Positions 1 to 53,776 of a stretch of 64,000 bases of DNA are shown here, in pieces. Position numbers and translations under genes: made by a program. The notes beneath the pieces are model-generated. The model was not told the DNA's origin, did not search any database, and was given only the letters and a program-made list of their open reading frames with translations. Origin of the DNA: Bordetella parapertussis (GTDB lineage: Bacteria > Pseudomonadota > Gammaproteobacteria > Burkholderiales > JACQAP01). The stretch covers positions 9,213-73,212 of the forward strand of contig CAMDKM010000011.1 in NCBI GenBank assembly GCA_945900965.1. The letters are read 5' to 3'. The stretch's first letter is position 1, and each line of letters opens with the position of its first letter.

Positions 1-759
1 TACGCGCTCGGACAGGAAACGCGCTACAAGGAATTGCTGGCCAATAATTTCGTGTCCCCGGAAGGATATGCCCAGGTGGCGGCGAATTTCCGCGCCCTCG
101 AATCCACGGTCGCCGGCAGCGTGTCGGCGGTCAACCGCGCGCGCATCAACATTGGCTACACCTCGATCCGCGCCACGCTCGACGGCCGCGCCGGCAAGGT
201 GCTGCTCGGCGAAGGCAATCTGATCAGGGCCAATGACGATCAGCCCATGGTGGTCATCAACCAGATCGCGCCGATCTATGTCAGCCTGGCGGTACCGGAA
301 AACCGGCTGAACGAAGTACGTGCATCACACAAAAAGGCACCAGTGCGAGTGGAAGTCGCGCCGGACAAGTCTGCGAGGCTGTCCGGATTGCTGGCCTTTG
401 TCGACAACGCGGTGGATGTGGCCACCGGCACGATCAAGTTGCGCGGCCAGTTCGCCAACCGCGACCGGCTGCTCTGGCCAGGACAATTTGTGGATGCCTG
501 GGTCGTACTGGGCGATGAGGAAAAAGCGCTGGTAGTGCCGACCCAGGCTTTGCAGACCGGCCCGAAGGGCCAGTTTGTTTATGTGGTCTCCGCCGATGGC
601 AGCGCGGAGTTGCGCGAAGTGACCGTGGCTCGTGCCGAAGGCAACGAAAGTGTGATTGCAGGCGGACTCAAGGTCGGTGAAACAGTGGTGGTGGACGGTG
701 CCTCGCGTGTGCAGCCCGGCTCCAAACTCGGCATCAAGACGCCGGACAAGCCGTCGTGA
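1..759 (+). CDS. RND efflux periplasmic adaptor (membrane fusion protein), C-terminal part; 5' end lies outside the window
   Basis: Frame 1 is open from the window edge. The C-terminal region resembles AcrA/MexA/MdtA-type adaptors (GQFVYVV...ELREVTV...VIAGGLKVGETVVVDG). Its stop overlaps the GTG start of the downstream RND pump (GTGA at 756-759). Confidence 0.8.
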   Translation, partial: YALGQETRYKELLANNFVSPEGYAQVAANFRALESTVAGSVSAVNRARINIGYTSIRATLDGRAGKVLLGEGNLIRANDDQPMVVINQIAPIYVSLAVPENRLNEVRASHKKAPVRVEVAPDKSARLSGLLAFVDNAVDVATGTIKLRGQFANRDRLLWPGQFVDAWVVLGDEEKALVVPTQALQTGPKGQFVYVVSADGSAELREVTVARAEGNESVIAGGLKVGETVVVDGASRVQPGSKLGIKTPDKPS

Positions 760-3700
760 GCATCGCCGAGATTTTTGTCCGCCGGCCGGTGATGACCGGG
801 CTGGTGATGATAGGCATCCTCGCCTTTGGCATCATTTCCTACCGGCAATTGCCGGTGTCGGATCTGCCCAACGTCGACTTCCCCACCATTGCGGTCACGG
901 CCTCCCTGCCCGGCGCCAGCCCGGAGACCATGGCCGCCGCAGTGGCCACGCCGCTTGAAAAAGAATTTTCCACGATCGCCGGCCTGGACTCGATGGATTC
1001 GTCGAGTGCGCTGGGTCTGACCCGCGTCACGCTGCAATTCGCCCTGGATCGCAACATCGATGCAGCCGCCCAGGACGTGCAATCGGCCATCACCCGCGCG
1101 CTGCGCCAACTGCCGGCGCAGATGAGCACGCCGCCATCGTTCCAGAAAGTCAATCCGGCGGACGCAGCGATTTTCTCGCTGTCGCTGACATCGAAGACGC
1201 TGCCCATGTCGGCGGTGGACGAATTTGCCCAGAGTCTGCTTGCGCAACGCATCTCCACCATTGCCGGAGTCGCACAGGTGCAGGTGATCGGTTCGCAGAA
1301 ATACGCGGTGCGCGTGCAACTCGACCCGCGCGCGCTGGCCAGTCGAGGCGTGGGCATTGACGAAGTGGCGCAAGCACTCAACCGCCACAATTCCAACCTT
1401 CCTACCGGCACGCTCAACGGCGCCCAGCGGGCCTACACCATCGAATCCAGCGGGCCGTTGCACAGCGCCGCCGATTTCCGGCCGATCGTGGTGGTCTGGC
1501 GCAATGGCGCCCCGATTAGACTCAACGAACTGGGTCGGGTGATCGACAGCGTACAAAACAATAAAATGGCGGCCTGGTTGAACGACGAGCCGGGCATCAT
1601 CATCCAGGTGCAACGCCAGCCCGGCACCAACACGATTCGCATCGTGGACTCCATCAAGCAACTGCTGCCCGGCTTCCAGGCCCAGGCGCCCGCTGGCTTG
1701 TCGATCGATATTCTCTACGACCGAACCATCTCGATCCGCGATTCGGTCGCCGATGTGAAATTTTCGCTGATGCTGGCGCTGGCGCTGGTGATTCTGGTGA
1801 TCTTCCTTTTTCTGCGCAACATCTCCGCGACGGTGATTCCCAGTCTCGCGCTGCCCATGTCCATCGCCGGAACGTTCCCCGTGATGTATCTGATGGGTTA
1901 CAACATCGACAATTTGTCACTCATGGCGTTGACGCTATGTGTGGGATTTGTGGTGGACGACGCCATCGTAATGCTGGAAAACATCAGCCGGCACCTGGAA
2001 ATGGGCAAGACCCGCATGCAGGCCACGCTGGATGGCGCTCGCGAAGTGGGTTTCACCATTGTCTCGATGACCCTGTCGCTGGCGGCGGTGTTCATTCCGG
2101 TGTTGTTCATGGGCGGGGTGCTGGGTCGACTGCTGCACGAATTCGCGGTTACCATCATAGCAGCGGTCCTGGTGTCGGGGTTCGTATCTCTGTCGCTCAC
2201 ACCGATGTTGTGCAGCCGCTGGTTGCGTCCCGAGCGAGAACGGCACCATGGTCTGGTTTACAGGGCATCGGAACGCGCCTTCGATGCCCTGCGCGATTTC
2301 TATGACCTGACGCTGCGCTGGTCGCTGCACCACCGGCGCACGGTGATGATCCTGTTCGCAGCGATTTTCGCCACCACGGTGTGGCTGTTCGACAAGATTC
2401 CGATGGGGTTTTTGCCGAGTATCGATACCGGCCAGTTGTTGGTGTTCACCGAGGCCGCGCAGGATATTTCCTTCGACGCCATGGCGCAGAAACAACGGCA
2501 GGCGGCCCGCATTGTGCGCGATGATCCCAATGTGGCCGCATCCATGGCCTTCATCGGCCCATCGTCCACCTCCGGCGCCAGCCAGACGCTGAACCTCGGG
2601 CGCATATTCGTCCGCCTCAAGCCGCGGGAAGAACGCCTGCACGCCGATGCCATCATTCAGGAATTGCGCCCCAAGCTGACTTCCATACCCGGACTCAAAG
2701 TTTATCTGCAGAACATTCCGCCGATTCGAATCGGCGGCAAAGTCACCAAAAGCGAATACCAGTACACCCTGCAGGATACCGACACCGACGAGCTCTATCG
2801 TTGGGCGCCGATTCTGGAAGCCAAACTCAAGTCGCTGCCGGATTTTGTGGATGTGGCGAGCGACCTGCAAATCACCAACCCCACCGTGCGGGTGGATATC
2901 GACCGCGACCGGGCTTCTTCTCTCGGCGTCACCGCCGAGCAGGTAGAGGATGCCTTGTACAGCGCCTTCAGCTCGCGTCAGGTATCGACCATTTATACGC
3001 CCGCCAATCAATACTGGGTCATTCTCGAACTCGAACCTCAGTATCAGGACAGCCCGGAAGCCCTGTCCCTGCTGCACGTTCGCTCGGGCCCCGGAGCATT
3101 GGTGCCGCTTTCCGCGGTGGCACGCATCGAACACGGCATCAGTCCGCTGATCGTGACCCATCAGGGTCAACTGCCTTCGGTCACGCTGTCCTTCAACCTG
3201 AAGAAAGGCGTGGCGCTCAGCCAGGCCATTGAAGAGGTCAACAAGGTCGTTGCGGAATTGCGCATACCGCCCACGTTGATCGGCAGTTTCCAGGGCACGG
3301 CACAAGCCTTCCAATCGTCTCTGGCTGGCATGGGATTGTTGTTGCTGATGTCGATTTTTGTGATCTATCTGATCCTCGGCATCCTGTATGAAAGTTACAT
3401 CCATCCGATCACCATTCTGTCCGGCCTGCCGACGGCGGGATTCGGCGCTCTGCTCACGCTGATGCTTTTCAAGATGGATCTGAACATGTACGGCTTCGTG
3501 GGTCTGATCATGCTGATCGGCATCGTCAAGAAAAACGCCATCATGATGATCGATTTCGCCATCGCCGCCCAGCGCAACGACGGCAAGGACCCGGCGCAGG
3601 CCATCTACGAAGCCTGCCTGATCCGCTTCCGGCCCATCATGATGACCACCATGGCCGCACTCATGGGCACGCTGCCGATCGCCATGGGCTTCGGCGCCGG

Positions 3701-3863
3701 CTCCGAAGCACGCAGGCCTCTGGGGCTGGCGGTCGTTGGCGGCCTGATGGTGTCGCAAGTGCTCACGCTCTACATCACACCGGTGGTGTATCTGTACCTG
3801 GAGAAACTGCGGACCTGGCGCAGCGGAAAACCCGATTCATCCGCCGCCCCGGCGGCAGCCTGA
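756..3863 (+). CDS. RND (HAE1 family) inner-membrane efflux permease, AcrB/MdtB/MdtC-like
   Basis: 1035-aa ORF. The N-terminus MSIAEIFVRRPVMTGLVMIGILAFGIISYRQLPVSDLPNVDFPTI, two large periplasmic loops and 12 hydrophobic segments are diagnostic of this family. Translationally coupled to the adaptor. Confidence 0.93.
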   Translation: MSIAEIFVRRPVMTGLVMIGILAFGIISYRQLPVSDLPNVDFPTIAVTASLPGASPETMAAAVATPLEKEFSTIAGLDSMDSSSALGLTRVTLQFALDRNIDAAAQDVQSAITRALRQLPAQMSTPPSFQKVNPADAAIFSLSLTSKTLPMSAVDEFAQSLLAQRISTIAGVAQVQVIGSQKYAVRVQLDPRALASRGVGIDEVAQALNRHNSNLPTGTLNGAQRAYTIESSGPLHSAADFRPIVVVWRNGAPIRLNELGRVIDSVQNNKMAAWLNDEPGIIIQVQRQPGTNTIRIVDSIKQLLPGFQAQAPAGLSIDILYDRTISIRDSVADVKFSLMLALALVILVIFLFLRNISATVIPSLALPMSIAGTFPVMYLMGYNIDNLSLMALTLCVGFVVDDAIVMLENISRHLEMGKTRMQATLDGAREVGFTIVSMTLSLAAVFIPVLFMGGVLGRLLHEFAVTIIAAVLVSGFVSLSLTPMLCSRWLRPERERHHGLVYRASERAFDALRDFYDLTLRWSLHHRRTVMILFAAIFATTVWLFDKIPMGFLPSIDTGQLLVFTEAAQDISFDAMAQKQRQAARIVRDDPNVAASMAFIGPSSTSGASQTLNLGRIFVRLKPREERLHADAIIQELRPKLTSIPGLKVYLQNIPPIRIGGKVTKSEYQYTLQDTDTDELYRWAPILEAKLKSLPDFVDVASDLQITNPTVRVDIDRDRASSLGVTAEQVEDALYSAFSSRQVSTIYTPANQYWVILELEPQYQDSPEALSLLHVRSGPGALVPLSAVARIEHGISPLIVTHQGQLPSVTLSFNLKKGVALSQAIEEVNKVVAELRIPPTLIGSFQGTAQAFQSSLAGMGLLLLMSIFVIYLILGILYESYIHPITILSGLPTAGFGALLTLMLFKMDLNMYGFVGLIMLIGIVKKNAIMMIDFAIAAQRNDGKDPAQAIYEACLIRFRPIMMTTMAALMGTLPIAMGFGAGSEARRPLGLAVVGGLMVSQVLTLYITPVVYLYLEKLRTWRSGKPDSSAAPAAA

Positions 3864-3876
3864 CTTAAATCTCAAA

Positions 3877-4284
3877 ATGGAAAATCCCGTATCCACGACA
3901 CCTTCAACAACACCCGATCCGTCCGTGGTGACCATTGCCCATGTCGTTTATGGCCTGCACGCCTTGAGCATACTGATCGGCTTGACCAGTTTTGCCACCA
4001 TCGTCGGAGCTTTCGTGTTCGGCGTCCCCTCGATCATCGCGGTGATCCTGAATTACCTGCACCAGCCCAAAGCCCGCGATACCTACCTCGCCTCGCATTT
4101 CCGCTGGCAGATCCGCACTTTCTGGTTTGCTGTGTTGTGGGTATTTTTCGCGCTGGCGTTGTTCGTTACCATCATCGGCATTCCGTTGGCCTGGGCTGTC
4201 CTGGTGGGTGCAGGTATCTGGATCATCTACCGCGTCGCGCGTGGCTGGCTTGCGTTGTCGGAACGCAAGGCAATGGTGATTTGA
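3877..4284 (+). CDS. small integral membrane protein, unknown function (about 4 TM)
   Basis: 135-aa ORF starting 14 nt after the RND pump. Hydrophobic helices, motif HFRWQIRTFWF. Family not confidently recognised. Confidence 0.6.
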   Translation: MENPVSTTPSTTPDPSVVTIAHVVYGLHALSILIGLTSFATIVGAFVFGVPSIIAVILNYLHQPKARDTYLASHFRWQIRTFWFAVLWVFFALALFVTIIGIPLAWAVLVGAGIWIIYRVARGWLALSERKAMVI

Positions 4285-4354: not shown

Positions 4355-5323
4355 TCAATCAATTTTCGCCCCCGCCTTTTTAATAACCGCCGCCCAACGC
4401 GGCCGCTCGCGTTTCACCAAATCCTGAAACTGTTGCGGCGAACTGCCATCCGGATCAGTACCGAGTTCCGCGAAGCGTTGCCGCACGGCAGGCGATTGGA
4501 GTGACGCGACAATTTCCCGATGCAGTTTCTCTACAATCGCCGTCGGCATATTCGCCGGACCAATGACCCCACCCCAAGCGACGGTCTCGTACCCCGGCAG
4601 TCCCGATTCGGCGATGGTGGGTACATTCGGAAATAAGACAGAGCGCCGAGGCCCCGATACGCCCAGCGGCCGCAGGCGTCCGGCTTTGACATGTGGCGCC
4701 ACCGAGGTAATGTTGTCGAAAATCACCTGCGCTTGGCCGGCGATCAAATCCGTGATCGCCTGCGGGCCGCCGCGATACGGCACATGCAGCATGTCCACGC
4801 CCGCCATGGTCTTGAACAATTCGCCGCCAAGGTGCCCCGTGGTGCCATTACCCGGCGAAGCGAACGCCAGCGTCCCGGGATGTTCCTTCGCATGGGCAAT
4901 CAATTGGCCAACACTCTTCACCGGAAGATCGTTGTTGACCGCCAGCAGGTTGGCGACTCGCAGGCAATTTGATATCAGTGTCAGATCGCGCTCGACGTCA
5001 TAGGGAAGATTCGGCAGCAATCCCTGATTGATGGCGAGCGACACAATGTTGCCGTAGCCAAGCGTATAGCCGTCGGGTGGGGCCCGCACAATTTCCATCG
5101 TGCCTATCACTGCGTTGGCGCCAGGTTTGTTCAAAATGACGATGGGCTGCCCCAGGCGTTGGGACAATTCGGCGGTAAGAATGCGCATCAGCACATCCGG
5201 CGACCCGCCGGGAGAACCCGAGACGATGAAACGAATCGGTTTATCCGGGTATTCCGGACGTGCGATTCCTGCGAGCGCCAGCAACGCGAATGCAAACAAC
5301 ATCCGCAATACCCATTTCGTCAT
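4355..5323 (-). CDS. Bug/TctC-family tripartite tricarboxylate transporter substrate-binding protein (orphan)
   Basis: Start chosen at the internal ATG (5323), preceded by AAGGTGA. Signal peptide MTKWVLRMLFAFALLALAGIA. Family motifs GGSPDVLMRIL, NKPGANAVIG, SPGNGTTGHLGGELF, HVPYRGGPQAITDLIAGQ. Confidence 0.85.
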   Translation of the reverse strand: MTKWVLRMLFAFALLALAGIARPEYPDKPIRFIVSGSPGGSPDVLMRILTAELSQRLGQPIVILNKPGANAVIGTMEIVRAPPDGYTLGYGNIVSLAINQGLLPNLPYDVERDLTLISNCLRVANLLAVNNDLPVKSVGQLIAHAKEHPGTLAFASPGNGTTGHLGGELFKTMAGVDMLHVPYRGGPQAITDLIAGQAQVIFDNITSVAPHVKAGRLRPLGVSGPRRSVLFPNVPTIAESGLPGYETVAWGGVIGPANMPTAIVEKLHREIVASLQSPAVRQRFAELGTDPDGSSPQQFQDLVKRERPRWAAVIKKAGAKID

Positions 5324-5351: not shown

Positions 5352-6371
5352 TCACCCTCGACTTCCGCCGACTGCAGCGAGGACACCAGCGCGGCGTCGC
5401 TCCAGCTTCCACCAGACAACAGCCGACAAGGCGGAGAGAAAGAATGCGCTAGCGACTGCGAATCCGCTGCTGGTTGTCACTAGCGAATTTGCCGCCAACC
5501 CGAGACCGAGCCACAGCGCCGGAGCCCGGAGCACGGCAGCCATCGATCGCGACGGCCGCCTTCGTTTGATGACGATCGCCGAAATCAACACCGCAAGCAC
5601 AAGCCCCCCAGATGCCCCCCACCAAGCATTGCTGGCGGGGGCTCCTGGCAAGAGGACTGCCATGGCGGCAGCGATGCGAATCGAACCTCCGAGATAATCG
5701 GTTCGTCTCATCCAGTCGGATCCTCCGATCAGCAGGCGCAATCCGTCATTCCCCGGAGGAAGAGGGACATTGTCGTCAGTGGACGCAAGGCCCTCAATCG
5801 GGCGCAGAAGCACTCGCATGGCGAGGCTCGCGAGCCAGCCCGCTGGCAACGCAAGTGGCGCGGCGATAAGTGGGATCGGCACCACGAACAGGAGCGCGAG
5901 CGTCCCGAGCACCAGCCACTCGACAACGCGCACAGCGGCGCGGCGAATGCGATGTCGCGGCGGCTCCGCCCATGTGGCGAGCGAGATAAGACGATCCGCC
6001 GAGCGCAACACGCGCCGACTCCGGGCAAGATCGAGTGCCTCGAAGGCTTCGTCGAAGCTGACCCAGCGAACCCTGCGCTTTTCGAGCGGCTTGCTGCGGC
6101 CGCTGTAGGCCATCAGAAAATACTCGATGGAGATCCAATCCCCTTCCTGCCTTTGCTTGACGCGCCGCAGGCGCCGGATTGGCCGCACACGCACACCCGC
6201 CTCTTCGCTAACCTCGCGCTGCGCGGTTTCGGCGGCACTCTCCCGTTTCTCGACATGCCCCTTCGGAAATACCCATCGGTCGCGCGTACCGCTGGCTTCA
6301 ACAAGGAGGTAACGCGGTCCATCGCCTGTCAGCTTGAAGACGATCCCTCCTCCATGCGTTGAGCGGCTCAC
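5352..6371 (-). CDS. Nudix hydrolase domain fused to a C-terminal polytopic membrane domain
   Basis: Complete Nudix box GHVEKRESAAETAQREVSEEAGV (GX5EX7REUXEEXGU), followed by about 190 aa with several hydrophobic helices. Start assigned to the GTG at 6371, which overlaps the CHAD gene stop (GTGA). The longer ATG-initiated ORF to 6497 would overlap the upstream gene by 130 nt. Confidence 0.7.
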   Translation of the reverse strand: MSRSTHGGGIVFKLTGDGPRYLLVEASGTRDRWVFPKGHVEKRESAAETAQREVSEEAGVRVRPIRRLRRVKQRQEGDWISIEYFLMAYSGRSKPLEKRRVRWVSFDEAFEALDLARSRRVLRSADRLISLATWAEPPRHRIRRAAVRVVEWLVLGTLALLFVVPIPLIAAPLALPAGWLASLAMRVLLRPIEGLASTDDNVPLPPGNDGLRLLIGGSDWMRRTDYLGGSIRIAAAMAVLLPGAPASNAWWGASGGLVLAVLISAIVIKRRRPSRSMAAVLRAPALWLGLGLAANSLVTTSSGFAVASAFFLSALSAVVWWKLERRRAGVLAAVGGSRG

Positions 6372-7282
6372 TGGGGCGGCGCCTCGACACTGCGCTGGGC
6401 CTCGTCCCAGAGAGGCCCAAGCTTGTCCGAGAGCAAGAAGGCCTTGCGCAGCGCAACGCGGCGAGCGCGTATGACCTTCACCAGCAGGCCCTCCCATACC
6501 CGTCGCTCGATCTTGGAGGCAGTGGCCATGGAAGTTTCAAGCAAGATCACCATTGAATCCGCGTCGTGGAGATCGCCCAGCACGTCATGGAATCGCGAAG
6601 CGCTCCGGTAGAGCCGCCGCACCTCCTTACCCAACGTGCGAGAGAAGGGCTCTATCGCGTAACGCAGGCGCTTGTTCCCGATGCGCAGACTGTGCATGGA
6701 CTCCGACGTCGCCTGCCTCCGCGCGGCCGTCCAACGCGCGCGCACATCCAGCAATCGCTCGTGCACCCGCTGGCACGCAAACACATAGGTGGGCTGGACA
6801 GATGCCGCGTCCTGCTCGATCAACCCGATACTCGCGCCGAGCTGCGTCGGGAAGCCCTCAAGCTGAAGACGATCGACCATCGTGGCGAGCGCCTCCGCGG
6901 CCTTGAGCCGCTCCGCCTCCAGCCGCGAAACAAGCTCGGTCACGCTGCGCGGCAGTTCCGTGTGCCCGGCAGTGAGTTTCCGCAGATGGATCAGGGCTAC
7001 GTCCCGATCACGCACCTCGCCAAGGGCGTCATTCAGGTTTTCAATCCACTCCCGATGCTTGCGAAAAACCTTCTTTTGCAAGACGGGCCGAAAGAGCCGG
7101 AAAGCCTCACGGAAACGTTTTACCGCCACACGCAGGTCGTGAATTCCTTTATGCGAGTCGGCGCCGTGAGCGTCGGGAATCTTTTCCAGAAGATCGAGCA
7201 GAACTGCCTGCAATACCTTCGATGACGCGCGCGCCACCGGCATGCGACGCGAAAGTCCTGCGATCCAGATCGGCTTGGCCAT
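6368..7282 (-). CDS. CHAD domain-containing protein
   Basis: Two CHAD-type conserved helices: HDLRVAVKRFREAFRLF and HSLRIGNKRLRYAIEPF. Start is uncertain (ATG 7282 or GTG 7372). Confidence 0.75.
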   Translation of the reverse strand: MAKPIWIAGLSRRMPVARASSKVLQAVLLDLLEKIPDAHGADSHKGIHDLRVAVKRFREAFRLFRPVLQKKVFRKHREWIENLNDALGEVRDRDVALIHLRKLTAGHTELPRSVTELVSRLEAERLKAAEALATMVDRLQLEGFPTQLGASIGLIEQDAASVQPTYVFACQRVHERLLDVRARWTAARRQATSESMHSLRIGNKRLRYAIEPFSRTLGKEVRRLYRSASRFHDVLGDLHDADSMVILLETSMATASKIERRVWEGLLVKVIRARRVALRKAFLLSDKLGPLWDEAQRSVEAPPQ

Positions 7283-7436
7283 ACTTGAAAGGATACAACA
7301 TGGGCAGGTGCCAGCGGAGGAAGCTGGTCGCGCGAATAAGGGTAACCCTAAAATCGCCACCGGTGCCTTCACTGGCGCGCAGCTATGTGAATCCGGTGGA
7401 AGGCGTAGATTTCCGTTAGCGGCACTGTGATGTAGT

Positions 7437-7466
7437 ATGTGTACTGTTACTGTAGGAGGTACACAC
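7437..7466 (+). promoter_or_regulatory. putative vapBC operator/promoter-proximal inverted repeat
   Basis: ATGTGTAC (7437-7444) and GTACACAC (7459-7466) form a 7/8 inverted repeat. It spans the AGGAGG Shine-Dalgarno and ends 2 nt before the vapB ATG. A TAGTAT -10-like hexamer lies at 7433-7438. Type II antitoxins commonly autoregulate through such sites. Confidence 0.35.
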
Positions 7467-7467
7467 T

Positions 7468-7662
7468 ATGCGTACGAATATTGTAATCGACGACAAGCTC
7501 ATGAAGGATGCTTTGCGGGCCACGGGAGCGAAGTCGAAGCGTGAAGCCGTTGAACTGGGATTGAGGACGCTCGTGGATCTGCGCAAGCAGGAGCAGGCTC
7601 GGCGACTCCGGGGAAAGATCACATGGGAGGGCAACCTCGATTCGATGAGGACCGATAAGTGA
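7468..7662 (+). CDS. vapB: type II antitoxin, VapB family
   Basis: 64 aa. N-terminus MRTNIVIDDKLMKDALRATGAKSKREAVELGLRTLV. Strong SD (AGGAGG). 4-nt overlap with the downstream PIN gene. Confidence 0.85.
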   Translation: MRTNIVIDDKLMKDALRATGAKSKREAVELGLRTLVDLRKQEQARRLRGKITWEGNLDSMRTDK

Positions 7663-8069
7663 TTCTTGTCGATTCCAGCGTGTGGATTGACTACTTCCGT
7701 GGCGCCACGACGCCACAGGTTGAACTATTGGATGGGCTTTTCGGACGGAAGCGCCTGGCCGTTGGCGACTTGATCGAGGTTGAAGTGCTGCAGGGTGTAC
7801 GCGATGAACGTGAGTTCAACCTGGTGCGCAAGACGCTGGATGCATTTGCCAAAATTGATCTGGTTGGCCACGACGTGGCGGTCAAGGCGGCGCGGAACTA
7901 CCGAACACTACGAAGGTTGGGAATTGCCGTGCGTAAAACTATTGATACGCTGATCGCGACACGGTGCATAGAGGACGGATTGACGCTCCTTCATTGCGAT
8001 AAGGACTTCGATCCATTTGCGACGCACCTTGGTCTCCGCGTGGCGTATTCGGAAACCGACTCGGGATAA
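7659..8069 (+). CDS. vapC: type II toxin, VapC (PIN-domain ribonuclease)
   Basis: 136 aa. N-terminus MILVDSSVWIDYFRG carries the first PIN acidic residue; the C-terminal part has LLHCDKDF. Overlaps vapB. Confidence 0.88.
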   Translation: MILVDSSVWIDYFRGATTPQVELLDGLFGRKRLAVGDLIEVEVLQGVRDEREFNLVRKTLDAFAKIDLVGHDVAVKAARNYRTLRRLGIAVRKTIDTLIATRCIEDGLTLLHCDKDFDPFATHLGLRVAYSETDSG

Positions 8070-24213: not shown

Positions 24214-25014
24214 ATGAAGATCCGTATTCTGTCCGATCTGCACCTGGAATTTTCCGATCGCTTCCCGCCACTTTCCTGGCCCATGCCGGACGCCGACGTG
24301 GTGGTGCTGGCCGGCGACATCGATAACGGGACGCGGGCCATCGACTGGGCGGAGCGGATCTTTTCAACAACACCGGTGCTCTATGTGCCGGGCAATCACG
24401 AATTCTACGACCGCGAAATATTCACCGCGCGCAATGCACTGAAGCGCCGCGCCGCGCAGAGTCCGAACCTGCGGCTGCTGGACGATGGGGAATGTGTCAT
24501 CAACGGTGTGCGCTTTTTGGGCAGCACCTTATGGACCGACTTTGCCGTATATGGAGAGAATAAAACAGGCCGCGCGATGGCCGAGTCAGTGCGCTACGTC
24601 ACGGACTTTCGCGCCATTCGCCATGGAACGGAAGGACTGCTGACACCGGCACAGACGGTCGAATTCCATCGTCAGGCCCTGAGCTTTCTTGAAGCGCGGA
24701 TACACGCCCTGTTCCCGGGCTCTACCGTTGTTGTCACCCACCATGCGCCGCACACCGGCAGTATTCACCCAAAATGGGGCGATACCCTGGTCAACGCCGC
24801 GTTTGTTTCGGATCTGACGCGGCTGCTGGGAAATCCCGTATTGTGGATTCATGGTCATACTCACGACAGTTTCGACTATCGCACCAATGGAACGCGGATT
24901 GTCGCCAATCCAATGGGCTACCGGTTCAGCAAGCGGCCGCGCATAGCGGGGCAGCTCCCTTCGGTCATGTTCGAAAACGCCTGTTTCGATCCGTCGCTTG
25001 TTGTATCGATATAG
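24214..25014 (+). CDS. calcineurin-like metallophosphoesterase
   Basis: All MPE blocks are present: SDLHLE, AGDIDNG, GNHEFY, VTHHAP, IHGHTH. Confidence 0.85.
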   Translation: MKIRILSDLHLEFSDRFPPLSWPMPDADVVVLAGDIDNGTRAIDWAERIFSTTPVLYVPGNHEFYDREIFTARNALKRRAAQSPNLRLLDDGECVINGVRFLGSTLWTDFAVYGENKTGRAMAESVRYVTDFRAIRHGTEGLLTPAQTVEFHRQALSFLEARIHALFPGSTVVVTHHAPHTGSIHPKWGDTLVNAAFVSDLTRLLGNPVLWIHGHTHDSFDYRTNGTRIVANPMGYRFSKRPRIAGQLPSVMFENACFDPSLVVSI

Positions 25015-25129
25015 CTGGCAGAGACGGTTTATCACAGCGAGCATGAAACTTGCCGGTCCAAGCCCTTGGATAGTAGCCTTCAACCCCGCGCGACGCCGCA
25101 CCGGTGTCACAAGGTCCCCGACCCGACCA

Positions 25130-26074
25130 ATGGAAACTGAATCAATTTCGCCCCCACCGAATCCGGTGCCCGAACATGCGGCCACCGATCCGGGCTCCCC
25201 GCCCACGCTTGCCAGTGTCGTTTTCGCTCGTATCGTCGAATTCGCCCGCCGCCCGGTTGCCGAACAGGCCAGACTGCGGGCCCAAATTGAAGCTGCGCTG
25301 GCTGTTTCGCTTGCGGCGGTCAAGCGCCGTAACCGGATAGTGCTTGATGCGCCTGACGGCATTGTTGTCGCGGTGCTGGCCGATCCCACCGCTGCTCTGA
25401 ATATTGCCGAGCGCTGTCTGAACGCTTCGATCGCCGGCGTTCCGGTGGCCATTGCCGTGAACCACGGGGCAATACGGCTCGCTCCCGATAAAAGCGGACG
25501 CCAGGGGCTGATGGGCGACGCATTGGGCACTGCTTCGGCCATAGCCCATTTTGCCGGCCCCGCGCGGCTGTTCGTTTCACGCTCCTTCCTTGATGCCCTG
25601 GCTATGGTAGCGCCGGCCCGAGCCTTGAGCCTGCGTCCGGCGGGCGTATTCACCGATGCCAATTTGCGCACTCATGAATTGTTATCGGTGGATCGCGAAG
25701 TTATTCCGCGCCGCAGAAGGTTTCTGGTTGCCATCGGGGCCGCAGCCTTGATCGCGATTGGCGCAACGATGGCGAACTTCCGTATAGACATCCGAAACAG
25801 TTTTAACGCCGGCAAGCCGGCGGTGCTGAACTTCAGTATTTACCCTTACGGCGAAGTATTCGTGGATCAAGTCTCTTATGGCAAGAGTCCGCCACTGCGG
25901 GAATTACAGCTCGAACCCGGGGCACACGAAGTGGAACTGCGTAAAAAGGGCTATCCCGCCTATCGCACCGTCGTTGAGATGGAGCCTGGCAATACGTCGA
26001 CCTTGGCATACGCTTTTGTGCCCAAGTCGGAACGGGGTCTGTTCCTTCGCCTTCGAAACTGGATTGCGCGCTGA
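25130..26074 (+). CDS. membrane protein with an N-terminal degenerate class III cyclase-like domain, one TM helix and a C-terminal PEGA domain
   Basis: Cyclase-homology-like blocks VVFARIVEFARRP ... APDGIVVAV ... IAVNHGAIRL ... GDALGTASAIAHFAG, lacking the usual metal-binding Asp. TM helix FLVAIGAAALIAIGATMANF. PEGA-like YGEVFVDQVSYGKSP...LEPGAHEVELRKKGY. Start uncertain (25043, 25130 or TTG 24998). Confidence 0.65.
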   Translation: METESISPPPNPVPEHAATDPGSPPTLASVVFARIVEFARRPVAEQARLRAQIEAALAVSLAAVKRRNRIVLDAPDGIVVAVLADPTAALNIAERCLNASIAGVPVAIAVNHGAIRLAPDKSGRQGLMGDALGTASAIAHFAGPARLFVSRSFLDALAMVAPARALSLRPAGVFTDANLRTHELLSVDREVIPRRRRFLVAIGAAALIAIGATMANFRIDIRNSFNAGKPAVLNFSIYPYGEVFVDQVSYGKSPPLRELQLEPGAHEVELRKKGYPAYRTVVEMEPGNTSTLAYAFVPKSERGLFLRLRNWIAR

Positions 26075-27982: not shown

Positions 27983-28292
27983 CCTGCCTTCCACCCATGG
28001 ACTCCTTGTCGCAATACCCAGACAACGCGCAGAATCAGTCTAACGTGGGCTCGATCCGGGCCATCACCGCCCCACTAACGCGCACTCCGTTCTGCACAGA
28101 AGGCATCAACACCCCGCACCTTCTGGTACCAGGGATCCGGATGCAAATCCCGGGCCCAAGAATTCGTGGGTCGCGCTATCCTATAATTTCTGGTTGATGC
28201 AGAAAATTATTCCAACACCAGAGCATAAGCGAATGACAAGCAACAGGCTTTTGGCTTTTCCCCCGATCATCCCTCAGGGCTGTGGTCGCGGC

Positions 28293-28973
28293 ATGGCAGC
28301 GTGTGGCAAGCGCAAGCGCTTTTGGATTGCTCTGATGGCTGTCGGCGTTGCCGGCTGCGCCGGCGGCGGCGCGAAGCAGTCCAATTTGGAAGACTGCCAG
28401 GAAGACAAGCGCGGCTGCATGGAATCTCGCTTAAGTCTCGCCGAACACGAAAAATTGATGCAGGTACGCTTCCAGCGACATTATCAGGAATGTATGGAAG
28501 GTCGGCGTTGCAATCTGGAATCCCTCGATGCCGCGAAGCGCCGAAAAGTCCACGAGGCCGTGTCCCGATTTAACTACCAAGCCTGCCTGCGTGGGGAATC
28601 GGGTTGTGTTACGGCGGTGCTCTCCGACGAAGAAAGAGCCAAAGTTGATACAACGGAAAGAACCCGAAATTTCGATCGCTGCGTAAGTGGTCTGGCCTCT
28701 TGCAGGCGATGGTCGCTGTCGCCCACCCAGCTGGTCGTGGTGCGGGAGGCCTATCTGCACCGCAATTTCGCGGCCTATCTGAACAGCGTAGGCACCTTGT
28801 TGCATTGCAGTCCCGATGAGCTCACGGCGGCGCAAAGTATCCAGGTTCGGGAGCGCAAGCTGGCCGTCAACCTGTACATCTGCGCCAACGCACTGATGGG
28901 ATGCGTGGAAGACTGGTTGAATCCTGAACAGCGGGAAACATTCTCCGCTGTGCGCGCGAAACTTGCGCGTTGA
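28293..28973 (+). CDS. lipoprotein with six tandem approximately 32-aa Cys-pair repeats
   Basis: Signal peptide and lipobox RFWIALMAVGVAGC. Repeats follow the pattern C-x5-6-C-x3-L-x3-E/Q-x3-V-x7-N-F/Y-x2. Start uncertain (ATG 28197, 28233 or 28293). Confidence 0.6.
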   Translation: MAACGKRKRFWIALMAVGVAGCAGGGAKQSNLEDCQEDKRGCMESRLSLAEHEKLMQVRFQRHYQECMEGRRCNLESLDAAKRRKVHEAVSRFNYQACLRGESGCVTAVLSDEERAKVDTTERTRNFDRCVSGLASCRRWSLSPTQLVVVREAYLHRNFAAYLNSVGTLLHCSPDELTAAQSIQVRERKLAVNLYICANALMGCVEDWLNPEQRETFSAVRAKLAR

Positions 28974-40790: not shown

Positions 40791-41390
40791 TCAGGTAATG
40801 ACGCCAGAATCCAGCGCGCGCCACAGGTACAGCGCCAAATAAGAACGATACGGTGCCGCCCGTTTCGGATCGAGCCGATGGGTTTTCAGGCGTCGCCTGC
40901 CTTCAAGCAGACGAATTGCCCGCTGCAAGCTGCCATCGGCGTGGGGAAACACATCCTCGTGTCCAACATAGAACAGCGCAATGATTGCCGCAGTCCACGA
41001 GCCCATTCCCTTGTGGCGGCCAATCTCCGCAGACAATTCCTTGGCGGAAAGACCATACCAATAATCGAGCGCCCCGGAATCGGACCCGACCTCACGGCCG
41101 AATTCGGCAATGGTTTTTGCCTTCGATCCGCTTAAACCGCAGGCGCGCAGGCTTTCCTGATCCAGAAGCCACGAACCTGGCAGCCCCAGATCAACCGCCC
41201 TTCCGTTCACTCGCTCGTAAATCGATTGCGCGGCCTTCGAAGACAGCATTTGTCCGGTCACCACGCGAACCACCGCCTCCGGCAACGGCATGTCGCGGCG
41301 GCAAAGTTTCGGGACGGTCGCCACTTTGCCCAACAGATCGGCATGGATCGGATAACAGGCTTGCAAATGGCGTTTAATTTTGATGCTCAT
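40791..41390 (-). CDS. HhH-GPD DNA glycosylase (AlkA/3-methyladenine glycosylase II-like)
   Basis: HhH region LRACGLSGSKAKTIAEFG and the catalytic-Asp region FPHADGSLQRA. Start at the ATG at 41390. Confidence 0.75.
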   Translation of the reverse strand: MSIKIKRHLQACYPIHADLLGKVATVPKLCRRDMPLPEAVVRVVTGQMLSSKAAQSIYERVNGRAVDLGLPGSWLLDQESLRACGLSGSKAKTIAEFGREVGSDSGALDYWYGLSAKELSAEIGRHKGMGSWTAAIIALFYVGHEDVFPHADGSLQRAIRLLEGRRRLKTHRLDPKRAAPYRSYLALYLWRALDSGVIT

Positions 41391-41454
41391 TTGCCGCCAT
41401 GGTACCGGGTCCACGCGTTCGGGTTGCCGGCAATTGCCGAGCGCCATTGGAACT

Positions 41455-41532
41455 CGTGAAGGGGGAAGGGTGAAGGCGTGAAGGGTCAAGGGTGAAGGGC
41501 GAAATCTAGTCTCTAGCCCCCAGTCTCTAGCC
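41455..41532. repeat. heptad-arm element, short copy 4
   Basis: GTGAAGGGGGAAGGGTGAAGGCGTGAAGGGTCAAGGGTGAAGGGC, followed by CTAGTCTCTAGCCCCCAGTCTCTAGCC. Confidence 0.7.
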
Positions 41533-42019: not shown

Positions 42020-43042
42020 ATGTCGTTTTTAGTCCCTCGAATTTTTGCGCGCGACAAGCCTTATTTGAGGCGCACTGCGACCCGACCAGCACTAGCATTT
42101 GCCGCTTTGGCCGTCCTTGTTCCGGTCAGCCCATGGGTTTATGCCCAAGGCCTTCCCGAAGAGATCCGTGTCATTGTGCCCGTAACAGCCGGCAGCAGCC
42201 TGGACGCGAGGGCGCGGATCATCGCAGAGGCACTGGGTCAGCGCATCAAACGCCGCGTTATTGTCGAAAATCGCACGGGCGCAGGCGGCACCATCGGCTC
42301 CCTGGCCGTTGCCAAAGCCAAACCCGACGGCGCTACGTTGCTGTTTACCAACAACAGTCATGTCGTCAGCCCGCATGTGTATCCGGGTGCCGGATACGAT
42401 GCGATGAAAGACCTGGTGCCAATCGCTTACGGCTACGTCTCCGGGATGATCCTGGTGGCCCATCCGAGTCTTCAGGCAAGCTCACCGGCAGAATTAGTGG
42501 CCCGGGTCAAAGTTTCCGCTTCGCCGCCGGGCTATGCATCCAGCGGGGCGGGCGGCATGCCGCATATCGCCATGGAGTTATTCAGGGAAATGGCCGGCAT
42601 CGACTTGCTGCATATCCCCTACCGGGGCGATGGTCAGGCCTTGGCTGACGTATTGTCGGGCCGGGTGCCGCTGATGATGAGCGGTTATGTCGTGGTGCAG
42701 CCGCATATCAAGACAGGCAAGCTGCGCGCGCTGGCGGTCACCGGCCGCCAACGTACCGACATTTTCCCCGACGTCCCCACGCTCGCGGAGGCCGGTTACC
42801 CGGATTACAGACTGGAAGTGTGGACCGGCTTTTTCGCGCCCGCCGGAATCCGTTCCGAGATTGTCGACAAACTCAACAGCGAGATCGCCATTGCCATCGC
42901 CACGCCCGCGGTTCAGGCCCAGTTCGCGGCGACCGGCGCACAAGCAATGGCCGCTTCGCCCGCAGCGTTTTCTGCCTTCGTGCGGCAGGAATGGGAAATC
43001 TATCGCAAGCTCGTCACACGCTTGAAGCTCAGCGCGGAGTAG
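42020..43042 (+). CDS. Bug/TctC-family tripartite tricarboxylate transporter substrate-binding protein (orphan)
   Basis: NRTGAGGTIGS, SSGAGGMPHIAMELF, HIPYRGDGQALADVLSGRV. Confidence 0.88.
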   Translation: MSFLVPRIFARDKPYLRRTATRPALAFAALAVLVPVSPWVYAQGLPEEIRVIVPVTAGSSLDARARIIAEALGQRIKRRVIVENRTGAGGTIGSLAVAKAKPDGATLLFTNNSHVVSPHVYPGAGYDAMKDLVPIAYGYVSGMILVAHPSLQASSPAELVARVKVSASPPGYASSGAGGMPHIAMELFREMAGIDLLHIPYRGDGQALADVLSGRVPLMMSGYVVVQPHIKTGKLRALAVTGRQRTDIFPDVPTLAEAGYPDYRLEVWTGFFAPAGIRSEIVDKLNSEIAIAIATPAVQAQFAATGAQAMAASPAAFSAFVRQEWEIYRKLVTRLKLSAE

Positions 43043-51862: not shown

Positions 51863-51998
51863 CCTTGACGCAACGACGCAAAGGCGCAAAGGAAAATACG
51901 GGCGAAACCAGATTGCGAGGCTCGCCCGGCGGCGGGCTTTTTTCGGTTTACCAATACGCATTTGAATTTCTTTGCGTCTTCGCGTCGTTGCGTCAAGG
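51863..51998. repeat. 136-bp element with perfect 17-bp terminal inverted repeats (GACGCAA-unit arms)
   Basis: CCTTGACGCAACGACGC (51863-51879) is the exact reverse complement of 51982-51998. The arms extend imperfectly to about 30 bp. Internal hairpin GCCCG-GCGG-CGGGC plus T6 at 51923-51942. Confidence 0.85.
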
Positions 51999-52003
51999 TT
52001 TGC

Positions 52004-52990
52004 CTACGCTTTAAGGTGTTTTTTGTAGTCGGGGTTCAGCAAGTTCGGCGGCAATTTCCCCGAAAGGGCGGCAACCAGATTCTTTGCTGCGGTCATCGCC
52101 ATAGCCTTGCGCGTGGGTTCGGAGGCGCTGGCGATATGCGGCGAGAGAACTACGTTTTTGATTTCCAGAAAACCGGGATTGAATTTGGGTTCGTTTTCGT
52201 ACACATCGAGGCCCGCGGCCCAGATGGTCTTCTTTTTCAAGGCATCAATGAGCGCTACGTCATCGACAATGCCCCCGCGCGCCACATTAACCAGCACGGC
52301 GGTGGGTTTCATCAGCGCGAGTTCCTTGGCGCCGATGAAGTGCTGGGTATCCGGCGTGAGCGGCAGGATCAAGAGCACGATGTCGGCGCGGCGCAGCAGG
52401 TCTTCCTTGCCCGAATATTCGGCGCCGGATTCGCGCTCCGCTTCGACCGTTGCGCGGTTGCGGCTGTGATACAGAATTTTCATGTCGAAACCGCGCGCGC
52501 GCCTGGCGATGGCTTGACCGATGCGGCCGAAGCCGCAAATGCCGAGCGTTGCGCCATGCACGTCGCAGCCGAGCATTTGCTTGAGGAATACGGTCTTCCA
52601 TTCGCCGTTGCGCAGGTAGGCTTCGCCCTCGGTCATACGCCGACAGGTGGCGATGATGAGTCCCATGGAATAATCAGCCACGCTGTCGGTAAGCACGCCC
52701 GGCGTATTGGTGACCATGACGCCGCGTTTCGTACAAGCCTCGACATCGATATTGTTGTAGCCTACGGCGGTGTTGCACACGGCGCGAATCGACGGGCATT
52801 TGGCGAGAAAATCGGCATCGACCTTGTCGCTCGAAGCGGTCTGCACGCCGTCCTTGCCCTGCAATTTGGCAATCAACTCCTCGCGCGCGTACAGACGGTC
52901 GGTTTGATTGGACTCGACCTCGAAATGGCCTATGAGGAATTCGACGGTTTCGTCGAAAACCTCGCGTGTGATCAGTATTTTTGGCTTCAT
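52004..52990 (-). CDS. D-isomer-specific 2-hydroxyacid dehydrogenase (glyoxylate/hydroxypyruvate reductase-like)
   Basis: NAD motif GICGFGRIGQAIARR. Catalytic region NVARGGIVD...SPHIASA. Start at the ATG at 52990. Confidence 0.88.
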   Translation of the reverse strand: MKPKILITREVFDETVEFLIGHFEVESNQTDRLYAREELIAKLQGKDGVQTASSDKVDADFLAKCPSIRAVCNTAVGYNNIDVEACTKRGVMVTNTPGVLTDSVADYSMGLIIATCRRMTEGEAYLRNGEWKTVFLKQMLGCDVHGATLGICGFGRIGQAIARRARGFDMKILYHSRNRATVEAERESGAEYSGKEDLLRRADIVLLILPLTPDTQHFIGAKELALMKPTAVLVNVARGGIVDDVALIDALKKKTIWAAGLDVYENEPKFNPGFLEIKNVVLSPHIASASEPTRKAMAMTAAKNLVAALSGKLPPNLLNPDYKKHLKA

Positions 52991-53128
52991 CTTTTGGCTC
53001 CCGGCAATTTCCGGAAGAGCCGGATGGACGGGGACCCGAAGGTTATCCCGAAGGGGCATTGCGGATCAAGCAGTCAAGGTATCGAGTCGAACCCATTCGC
53101 CTTTGAGGTGGCCGAAATCGGGCCGCGA

Positions 53129-53776
53129 TCAGCCGGCAACGATGATCACATGCACGCGAATCGGGCCATGGGCCCCAAGCACCAGGGTCAATTCGATGTC
53201 CGCCGTTCGCGAGGGCCCAGACACGAAGTTGACCTGGCGCGGGAGCGTGCCGTGCTCGCGGCGAAGCAAATCCCATCCGTCTTCCATGGCGGACACAATG
53301 CGCGAAGCCGGCACAATGGCGATGTGGGTATCGGGAAGCAGGCTGGAGGTGGCCGATGTCCCCTCGCCCGATAACAGCATTAATGTGCCGTTTTCGGCCA
53401 ACGCGCAATAGGTTCCGGTAATTCCGACCTTGTCCGACGCCATCGCCGGGCGCGGCTCGATTTTTAATCCGGCTCCTGCCCAGTCGAGGGCGGCGAATTC
53501 CGGCCAACATACGCCGATTTCGGGAAGCTTAAGGGTGCGCAGATATCGGGCAGCCGCGGCTGGCACATCGGTTAGCGTTCCCACATCGTCAACCGTGGAC
53601 ATCATCGCCAGGCAGCGCTGCCTGAAGCGTGCCACCGGCTCCCAGTTCATGGAGGGCAGCGGTCCGCGCACCGGGTGCCGCAGGCGATCGATGGCAGGTT
53701 CACGTCCCGCCGGGATGTACCCCGTCTGGCGATTAGCATCCCGAATGCGCCGCAGAATGTTGTCCCTTGCACTCAT
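53129..53776 (-). CDS. lutC: lactate utilisation protein C (LUD domain)
   Basis: 215 aa, immediately downstream of lutB (3-nt gap). LUD-domain length and position in a lutABC-ordered cluster. Confidence 0.8.
   Translation of the reverse strand: MSARDNILRRIRDANRQTGYIPAGREPAIDRLRHPVRGPLPSMNWEPVARFRQRCLAMMSTVDDVGTLTDVPAAAARYLRTLKLPEIGVCWPEFAALDWAGAGLKIEPRPAMASDKVGITGTYCALAENGTLMLLSGEGTSATSSLLPDTHIAIVPASRIVSAMEDGWDLLRREHGTLPRQVNFVSGPSRTADIELTLVLGAHGPIRVHVIIVAG

Follow-up and report, generated by a model that had tools for sequence, protein, structure and literature searches.

What might a putative polyphosphate-binding protein and a membrane-borne Nudix enzyme accomplish together when their genes share the very bases at which translation of one ends and translation of the other begins? 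The question is raised by a locus in a 64,000-nucleotide stretch of contig CAMDKM010000011.1 (assembly GCA_945900965.1, positions 9,213 to 73,212; lineage Burkholderiales), referred to here as the window, in which a CHAD-domain gene is followed by a gene encoding a Nudix catalytic domain fused to a predicted membrane domain (Table 1). The original prediction, made from the letters of the DNA, saw in this pair an undescribed module for processing polyphosphate or nucleotide polyphosphates at the membrane. Our analysis leads us to favor, by a modest measure, a translationally coupled phosin–Nudix module in which a polyphosphate-associated nucleotide-oligophosphate hydrolase would be held at the membrane. 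The word 'undescribed' does not survive, as a CHAD–Nudix operon has been published for Streptomyces (PMC8003754) and a further example is found in a Gemmatimonadales metagenome-assembled genome (MAG). The CHAD–Nudix pairing has thus already been described, and the pair in the window is a membrane-tethered version of the Streptomyces pairing.

Both domain assignments were confirmed by Pfam profile searches. Specifically, the upstream protein matches the CHAD family (PF05235) with E=3e-37 and 129.1 bits against a cut-off of 25.6, the match covering profile positions 4-222 of 228. CHAD is the sole family found in this 304-residue protein by the Pfam scan, in which a CYTH domain is absent. The 120 CHAD homologues listed are 73-89% identical to the window protein and 303-320 residues long, nearly all of them 303 or 304, and these lengths place the CHAD start at ATG 7282 and not at the upstream GTG 7372. 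Among sequence matches in the PDB, the closest solved structures are CtCHAD 6QV7 and 6QVA (polyphosphate-bound CtCHAD), together with 3E0S and 6QV5. CHAD domains bind polyphosphate and localize on granules (PMC6537752), and the window protein, with an isoelectric point (pI) of 10.45 and 54 lysine and arginine residues in 304, is expected from its sequence to be a basic helical polyphosphate binder of the granule-decorating kind. Fold family and basic character are shared with Ralstonia eutropha PptA and PptB, CtCHAD and the CYTH–CHAD protein YgiF. In YgiF, however, CHAD is fused to a triphosphate-tunnel enzyme, whereas the window CHAD lacks CYTH and has a separate, coupled Nudix as its enzymatic partner.

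With respect to the coupling itself, the GTGA overlap at 6368-6371 and the Nudix start at 6371 were both borne out, and the alternative start that had been named as a threat to them, an ATG at 6497, is ruled out on three grounds. First, CHAD-less homologues (L001, L090, L095, L100 and L110) carry an ATG at the aligned position and unrelated DNA directly upstream of it. Second, a comparison of the 126 nucleotides at 6372-6497 with 13 related loci places 165 differences at third positions of the CHAD frame and 76 and 91 at first and second positions, an excess which indicates that this stretch evolves as CHAD coding sequence. Third, Nudix-frame stop codons lie inside the same stretch in five relatives, the two closest (L167 and L168) among them. 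The 339-residue product that results is exactly the one annotated by NCBI as 'NUDIX domain-containing protein [Burkholderiales bacterium]' (P0001; Burkholderiales MAG contig JBEBGF010000002.1).

The junction is not peculiar to the window. Overlaps of the form NTGA were found at about 50 loci, with CHAD proteins that share 63-89% identity with that of the window (35 with TTGA, 4 with GTGA including the window, 11 with CTGA and one, L172, with ATGA), so that the pairing is conserved elsewhere and the overlap is not a product of chance. Most relatives have GAGGAG, inside the CHAD 3' end, in place of the window's GAGG. Retention of a four-base stop/start overlap at so many loci predicts that CHAD and Nudix are made together. 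The 11 CHAD-coupled loci with CTG at the conserved Nudix start (L111-L113, L116, L119, L120, L123-L125, L132 and L141) form a small curiosity of their own: their CTGA junction sits upstream of the sequence THGG (in L112, for example, at about 1360), gene callers placed the start at a GTG 14 codons upstream (P0082 and P0089), and either CTG serves for initiation via termination-reinitiation or the start has moved and the overlap is longer. A number of apparent CHAD–NUDIX fusions in the source labeled 'src' (P0083, P0091, P0096, P0098, P0102, P0112 and P0113) were rejected as artefacts in which out-of-frame CHAD is read through in the Nudix frame. These false fusions consist in part of Arg/Ala-rich mistranslated CHAD, one of them opening with the junk prefix MKENVFFFFFFFQAEDGIRDL, and they would mislead surveys of domain architecture.

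Turning to the enzyme, the Pfam NUDIX family matches residues 11-120 with E=5e-16, and the Nudix box is complete, as had been claimed. G38, E44, R52, E53, E56, E57 and G59 are invariant across 32 homologues, the sample over which invariance of the box residues was judged, and the catalytic residues of the box are invariant in every state of the family with respect to CHAD and the membrane anchor. Residues 1-135 are modeled by AlphaFold in the alpha/beta/alpha Nudix fold with a pLDDT (predicted local distance difference test) of 80-90. A Foldseek search with the whole model returned hydrolases of diadenosine tetraphosphate (Ap4A) and hexaphosphate (Ap6A), MutT1/Rv2985 and NUDT2/4 at E about 1e-8 and a probability of 1.00; all matches were Nudix-domain, with about 120-150 residues aligned, and the target-normalized TM-scores against single-domain Ap4A/Ap6A hydrolases were 0.72-0.79. 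By sequence, the solved structures that come closest are those of Chlamydia CT771 (entry 4MPO, titled 'bound to hydrolyzed Ap4A products'), Thermus thermophilus Ndx1, the human and Aquifex Ap4A hydrolases, yeast DDP1 and human DIPP1-3. The fold neighbors are this same set with the addition of M. smegmatis MutT1 and M. tuberculosis Rv2985, the latter from a 'Nudix diadenosine polyphosphatase' deposit, and identities to sequence and fold neighbors are only 20-34% (34% to Ndx1). On these comparisons the domain is closest to the clade of dinucleoside and nucleoside-oligophosphate hydrolases that comprises Ap4A/Ap6A hydrolases, MutT1 and DIPP/Ddp1. The nearness to the DIPP/Ddp1 type that was proposed at the outset therefore stands, and has to be read alongside nearness to the Ap4A/Ap6A hydrolases and MutT1.

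Within that clade, Ndx1 and the Aquifex and human Ap4A hydrolases (NUDT2 type) resemble the catalytic domain most closely in both sequence and structure; unlike the window Nudix, each consists of one small, soluble domain and lacks any linkage to CHAD. Ddp1, DIPP and NUDT3 belong to the same broad clade and act on polyphosphate or inositol pyrophosphates, but these soluble enzymes come from eukaryotes, and their matches are weaker than those of the hydrolases of diadenosine polyphosphates (ApnA). Their presence among the sequence and fold neighbors (DDP1, DIPP1-3) nonetheless raises the alternative that the Nudix domain cleaves polyphosphate directly, as a bacterial equivalent of the Ddp1/NUDT3 endopolyphosphatase, with CHAD delivering the polymer to it at the membrane. 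The tight coupling to a polyphosphate binder would suit such an enzyme, as would the domain's high pI and the many arginines that are invariant across the 32 homologues, since this basicity and these arginines suit a highly anionic substrate; Ddp1-type Nudix enzymes are, moreover, listed as polyphosphatases (PMC6537752). Against this, the Ap4A/Ap6A hydrolases and MutT1 match better than DIPP, the identities to all neighbors are too low to define a substrate, the papers that we consulted contained no bacterial Nudix polyphosphatase, and the Nudix gene persists in many lineages that lack CHAD. We consider this alternative unlikely.

The remaining part of the protein is predicted to be a multi-pass membrane domain, as the original prediction had it, on the strength of hydropathy, a positive-inside pattern of charges and the helices of the AlphaFold model. 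Simple insertion-energy sums give strong segments at residues 153-171, 250-268 and 303-321 and marginal ones at 226-244 and 276-294, with none comparable in the Nudix domain. The hydrophobicity of residues ~148-322 is conserved family-wide, as are basic loops at 139-148, 269-282 and 323-328; in the window protein, the basic stretches are RHRIRRAAVR ahead of the first helix, KRRRPSRS at 269-276 and KLERRR at the end. This pattern fits a predicted topology of 4-6 spans in which both termini and the catalytic domain are cytoplasmic. AlphaFold places helices at 138-161, 168-193, 209-224, 229-243, 250-270, 282-299 and 303-335, with a pLDDT of 40-60 and no confident helix packing in this half of the protein.

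What kind of membrane domain this might be is suggested by its distribution and by what it tolerates. It has no Pfam match, and an exhaustive profile search of 1.84 billion representative proteins returned 11 matches, 10 of which are members or fragments of the family itself; the exception, P0246, is a 2220-residue protein matched in 11 short stretches. By these searches the domain is a narrow, lineage-restricted orphan. It is also much less conserved than the catalytic domain, and variants of 291-293 residues lack a block of ~40-50 residues between helix 3 and the last helix (predicted helices 4-5). If the missing block is a two-helix hairpin, the topology would be kept after its loss. In the commonest members of the family, short forms of 170-190 residues, the first half of helix 1 and a conserved polybasic tail, AEWLVGGALALLRPRGxRRKxRVRR, stand in place of the membrane domain; the amphipathic helix and polybasic tail of these forms could still bind the membrane or polyphosphate. 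Weak conservation, tolerated loss of the block, replacement in the short forms and the lack of relatives elsewhere are the grounds on which we read the domain as an anchor.

The competing view gives the C-terminal domain an active role, for example in conducting, transporting or sensing phosphate, polyphosphate or nucleotides, in place of passive anchoring. It can draw on the cytoplasmic loop LRLLxGGxxWMxRTDYLGGxIR, which is conserved in the family and accompanies the basic loop KRRRPSRS within the domain, on the conserved C-terminal WWKLERRRAGVLAAVGGSR, and on the gene for a TctC periplasmic binding protein directly downstream. Yet the lack of relatives outside the family and the tolerated absence of the ~40-50-residue block speak against it, as do the loss of the entire domain in most CHAD-coupled relatives, the lack of confident helix packing and the restriction of the TctC linkage to close relatives of the window, and we judge a role of this kind very unlikely. 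Three other proteins that combine membrane segments with a Nudix domain (P0117, P0118 and P0120) were considered and set aside, as their membrane domains are unrelated and the contigs of P0117 and P0118 show unrelated contexts; they lend no support to a general link between membrane-borne Nudix proteins and polyphosphate. The first of these, a 387-residue protein with an N-terminal membrane part and a C-terminal Nudix domain (L173 5001-6164), lies between giant Tc-toxin-type genes, SpvB/TcdB and ABC_toxin_N, and its start overlaps the end of the first of them by 4 nucleotides.

How closely the three parts of the system belong together can be gauged from their history. Metagenome contigs were scanned with family-specific patterns, giving 80 listed loci to which the contexts of individual proteins were added, and the CHAD–Nudix pair was found to recur in metagenomes of uncultured soil Burkholderiales. 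CHAD and a Nudix–membrane protein occur together in the window, in L167 and L168 (80% identical), in L087 and in the outgroup L172. CHAD with a short Nudix is the commonest state, Nudix–membrane without CHAD is found at 19 loci, and the catalytic domain occasionally stands with neither CHAD nor anchor. In the outgroup (P0100, from L172), a Nudix domain 48% identical to that of the window is joined to a membrane domain and preceded, with the ATGA overlap, by a CHAD protein that is 63% identical, and an outgroup with all parts makes it most likely that the coupled three-part arrangement is ancestral. A neighbor-joining tree without support values was used only together with this outgroup context and with remnants of deletion. 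Regarding the latter, several CHAD-less loci keep 20-70 nucleotides of the CHAD 3' end just upstream of the Nudix start, the GAGGAG ribosome-binding site included, and these remnants fall by breakpoint into four groups (L089/92/96/97/102; L127; L128/129; L134). The differing breakpoints imply that CHAD was deleted independently at least four times. Separate losses of CHAD and of the membrane domain in turn indicate that neither partnership is obligatory, and the suggestion that a membrane tether is integral to the module has to be given up, as CHAD-coupled relatives mostly do without the membrane domain and anchored ones mostly without CHAD.

Independent links between CHAD or polyphosphate genes and Nudix enzymes are known in other organisms. 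In Streptomyces lividans, ppk, pptA (CHAD) and SLI_4382, which encodes a 142-residue Nudix protein 'similar to Ap6A hydrolases', form a single transcription unit controlled by PhoP. Of 163 Streptomyces genomes, 88% have the ppk-pptA-nudix arrangement, and elsewhere among bacteria ppk is commonly followed by genes for Nudix, MutT or histidine-phosphatase proteins (PMC8003754). The window pair resembles the operon of S. lividans and S. coelicolor in that a stand-alone CHAD gene lies directly upstream of an Ap6A-hydrolase-like Nudix gene and the arrangement is conserved lineage-wide, a likeness that is drawn from the published description. The two differ in that the Streptomyces pair follows ppk, is controlled by PhoP and includes a soluble Nudix, whereas the window pair has no ppk within 64 kb, a 4-nucleotide overlap and a Nudix with a membrane domain of ~200 residues. 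The MutT1 proteins (Rv2985 and MSMEG MutT1) are among the top fold neighbors and supply the top NCBIfam match of the window Nudix, and the mycobacterial MutT1 gene adjoins ppk1. MutT1 is a fusion with a histidine phosphatase and has no CHAD partner, whereas the window Nudix has a hydrophobic C-terminal half in which Pfam finds no His_Phos match. The activity of MutT1 extends to both diadenosine polyphosphates and 8-oxo-(d)GTP (PMC11784022). PPK2-NUDIX fusion proteins have also been reported (PMC11968564), and they represent a likewise recurrent link between a polyphosphate enzyme and Nudix, but as kinase fusions they involve neither pairing with a binding protein nor a membrane anchor. A large survey devoted to the Nudix clan makes no mention of CHAD or of fusions to transmembrane segments (PMC5389931).

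A further case comes from a set of 80 distant Nudix loci on genome contigs, at most 40% identical to the window Nudix and taken from among the matches listed, in a search where full-length alignment favored generic Nudix-box patterns. In one of them, a Gemmatimonadales MAG (L011 2736-6405; CAVVWJ010000002.1), ppk1, His_Phos_1, CHAD, a 127-residue open reading frame (ORF) without Pfam match and a 150-residue Nudix that is 38% identical to that of the window lie together. Components known as fusions or pairs from mycobacterial MutT1 and the Streptomyces operon are here united in one cluster, each as its own gene.

The mechanism that we favor builds on these links. CHAD would bring polyphosphate, or the surface of a granule, next to a hydrolase whose cytoplasm-facing catalytic domain is held on the inner membrane by a lineage-specific anchor of 4-6 helices, the membrane domain acting as anchor and not as transporter or sensor. 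The hydrolase may then remove highly phosphorylated nucleotides that form where polyphosphate kinases work (ApnA, adenosine tetra- or pentaphosphate), or it may trim polyphosphate. The strongly basic character of both proteins supports this proposal, which further rests on the independent CHAD/polyphosphate–Nudix links provided by the Streptomyces operon, the Gemmatimonadales cluster and the PPK2-NUDIX fusions. A bolder version, in which CHAD and the anchored Nudix form a complex that would tether granules, or polyphosphate chains still being made, to the inner membrane and there cut the polymer or its nucleotide-capped ends, strikes us as quite improbable. Were it true, bacteria would gain their first Nudix-type polyphosphatase, a phosin would for the first time be seen as the targeting subunit of an enzyme, and the short forms would be peripheral-membrane versions of the same device.

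A number of observations weigh against the favored mechanism, and several of them can be turned to the advantage of a plainer account, namely that a general housekeeping or sanitizing Nudix (MutT1-like clearance of 8-oxo-GTP or Ap4A, or RNA 5'-end processing) is hitch-hiking in an operon without any functional connection to CHAD or polyphosphate. No ppk1, ppk2 or ppx was found in the 64-kb window or in the 10 kb on either side of it on the source contig, a search that covered ORFs of at least 180 residues, none of which matched the PP_kinase or PPK2 families. CHAD has been lost repeatedly with Nudix retained, the CHAD-less copies sit in unrelated operons, and most CHAD-coupled relatives have no membrane domain. 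Deletion of the Streptomyces Nudix gene gave no obvious phenotype (PMC8003754). In the NCBIfam comparison, no equivalog cut-off was reached, the best match being MutT1 (NF052459, 37.1 bits against 475), with RppH and MutT next, and no specific substrate can accordingly be assigned. The remaining points bear on the favored mechanism alone. CHAD or ppk1 is nearby in only one of the 80 distant Nudix loci among the matches listed (L011), which makes the link recurrent and not general for the wider clade; the low pLDDT of the membrane half makes membrane insertion a prediction; and any physical contact between CHAD and Nudix is a conjecture.

The hitch-hiking account faces difficulties in its turn. 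The 4-nucleotide overlap is kept down to the identities seen in the outgroup (48% for Nudix, 63% for CHAD), the same kind of Nudix is tied to CHAD or ppk in Actinobacteria and Gemmatimonadota, and the NCBIfam scores on which a MutT1-like or RppH-like role would draw all lie far under their cut-offs. Such an account is, in our estimation, rather unlikely. If it were nonetheless correct, and the protein proved to be just an anchored housekeeping Ap4A hydrolase, the result would be a modest one, a further domain architecture for the Nudix superfamily.

Table 1. Positions of the CHAD–Nudix genes and associated features in the window
Feature	Position	Strand	Details
CHAD gene	6368..7282	-	304 residues + stop; putative stand-alone phosin-type polyphosphate-binding protein, from sequence
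Shine-Dalgarno-like GAGG	6382..6385	-	~10 nt 5' of Nudix start, within CHAD 3' end
GTGA junction	6368..6371	-	CHAD TGA stop shares bases with Nudix GTG start; 4-nt overlap; translational coupling
Nudix–membrane fusion gene	5352..6371	-	339 residues + stop; ~60 full-length homologues, 338-346 residues
Nudix catalytic domain, predicted cytoplasmic	5967..6371	-	residues 1-135; pI 10.8; Pfam NUDIX, AlphaFold, Foldseek
Nudix box GHVEKRESAAETAQREVSEEAGV	6192..6260	-	translation; matches GX5EX7REUXEEXGU at all positions
Predicted membrane anchor	5406..5930	-	residues 148-322, ~175 residues, 4-6 helices; hydropathy and AlphaFold
TctC/Bug periplasmic solute-binding protein gene	4355..5323	-	322 residues; 28 nt past Nudix stop; Pfam TctC
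CHAD/vapBC intergenic region	7283..7467	.	presumed promoter region; ORF map

The genes that flank the pair bear on its possible operon context. The TctC gene downstream of Nudix may complete a three-gene operon, or it may simply belong to the orphan Bug genes, which are numerous in Burkholderiales. In L167 and L168 (TctC at 7023-7991 in both) it begins within the last 4 nucleotides of the Nudix gene, and the linkage is confined to the window's close relatives and is not seen in more distant ones. Another TctC gene lies at 42020-43042. In the presumed promoter region, a scan found no match to the sigma-70 consensus, and the promoter and terminator scans as a whole gave no useful result.

Directly upstream of CHAD, a divergent VapB-VapC (PIN) toxin-antitoxin pair occupies 7468-8069 on the plus strand, and in close relatives its position is taken by BrnT/BrnA, helix-turn-helix and AbiEii-like genes (L167 2098-4739; L168 2233-5008). 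Variable toxin-antitoxin content between syntenic flanks gives the site the look of an insertion hot-spot. These neighbors, BrnTA/AbiEii-like genes included, together with a weak PADLOC match of the Nudix domain to the candidate system PDC-S07 (E=1e-9), might suggest that the pair belongs to an anti-phage or stress-defence module. The match, however, is the only one that PADLOC gives and reflects generic Nudix similarity (36 bits), CHAD has no PADLOC match, the CHAD-Nudix-TctC-AcrB synteny is stable while the toxin-antitoxin genes vary, and other relatives are found in metabolic contexts; we reject a role in defence, which has next to no probability in our estimation.

Elsewhere in the window, a 135-residue predicted membrane protein without Pfam match (3877-4284, plus strand) directly follows the gene for an AcrB-type resistance-nodulation-division pump (756-3863), a position that it keeps in L167, L168 and L169. 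Four long ORFs of 232-470 residues have no Pfam match at E<=1e-5, at 24586-25671 (minus strand), 28194-28973 (plus), 40791-41489 (minus) and 51962-53374 (plus).

With respect to its broader meaning, this family amounts to a natural experiment with four settings: the same catalytic domain is found with both CHAD and an anchor, with either of the two alone and, occasionally, without both, and the NTGA overlap is preserved as long as CHAD is present. The role of CHAD phosins on granules and that of the Nudix enzyme in the Streptomyces operon are both questions that the family can address. Specifically, it supplies an easily cloned pair with which to ask whether phosins serve to recruit an enzyme or to regulate it, and which highly phosphorylated substrate that enzyme clears.

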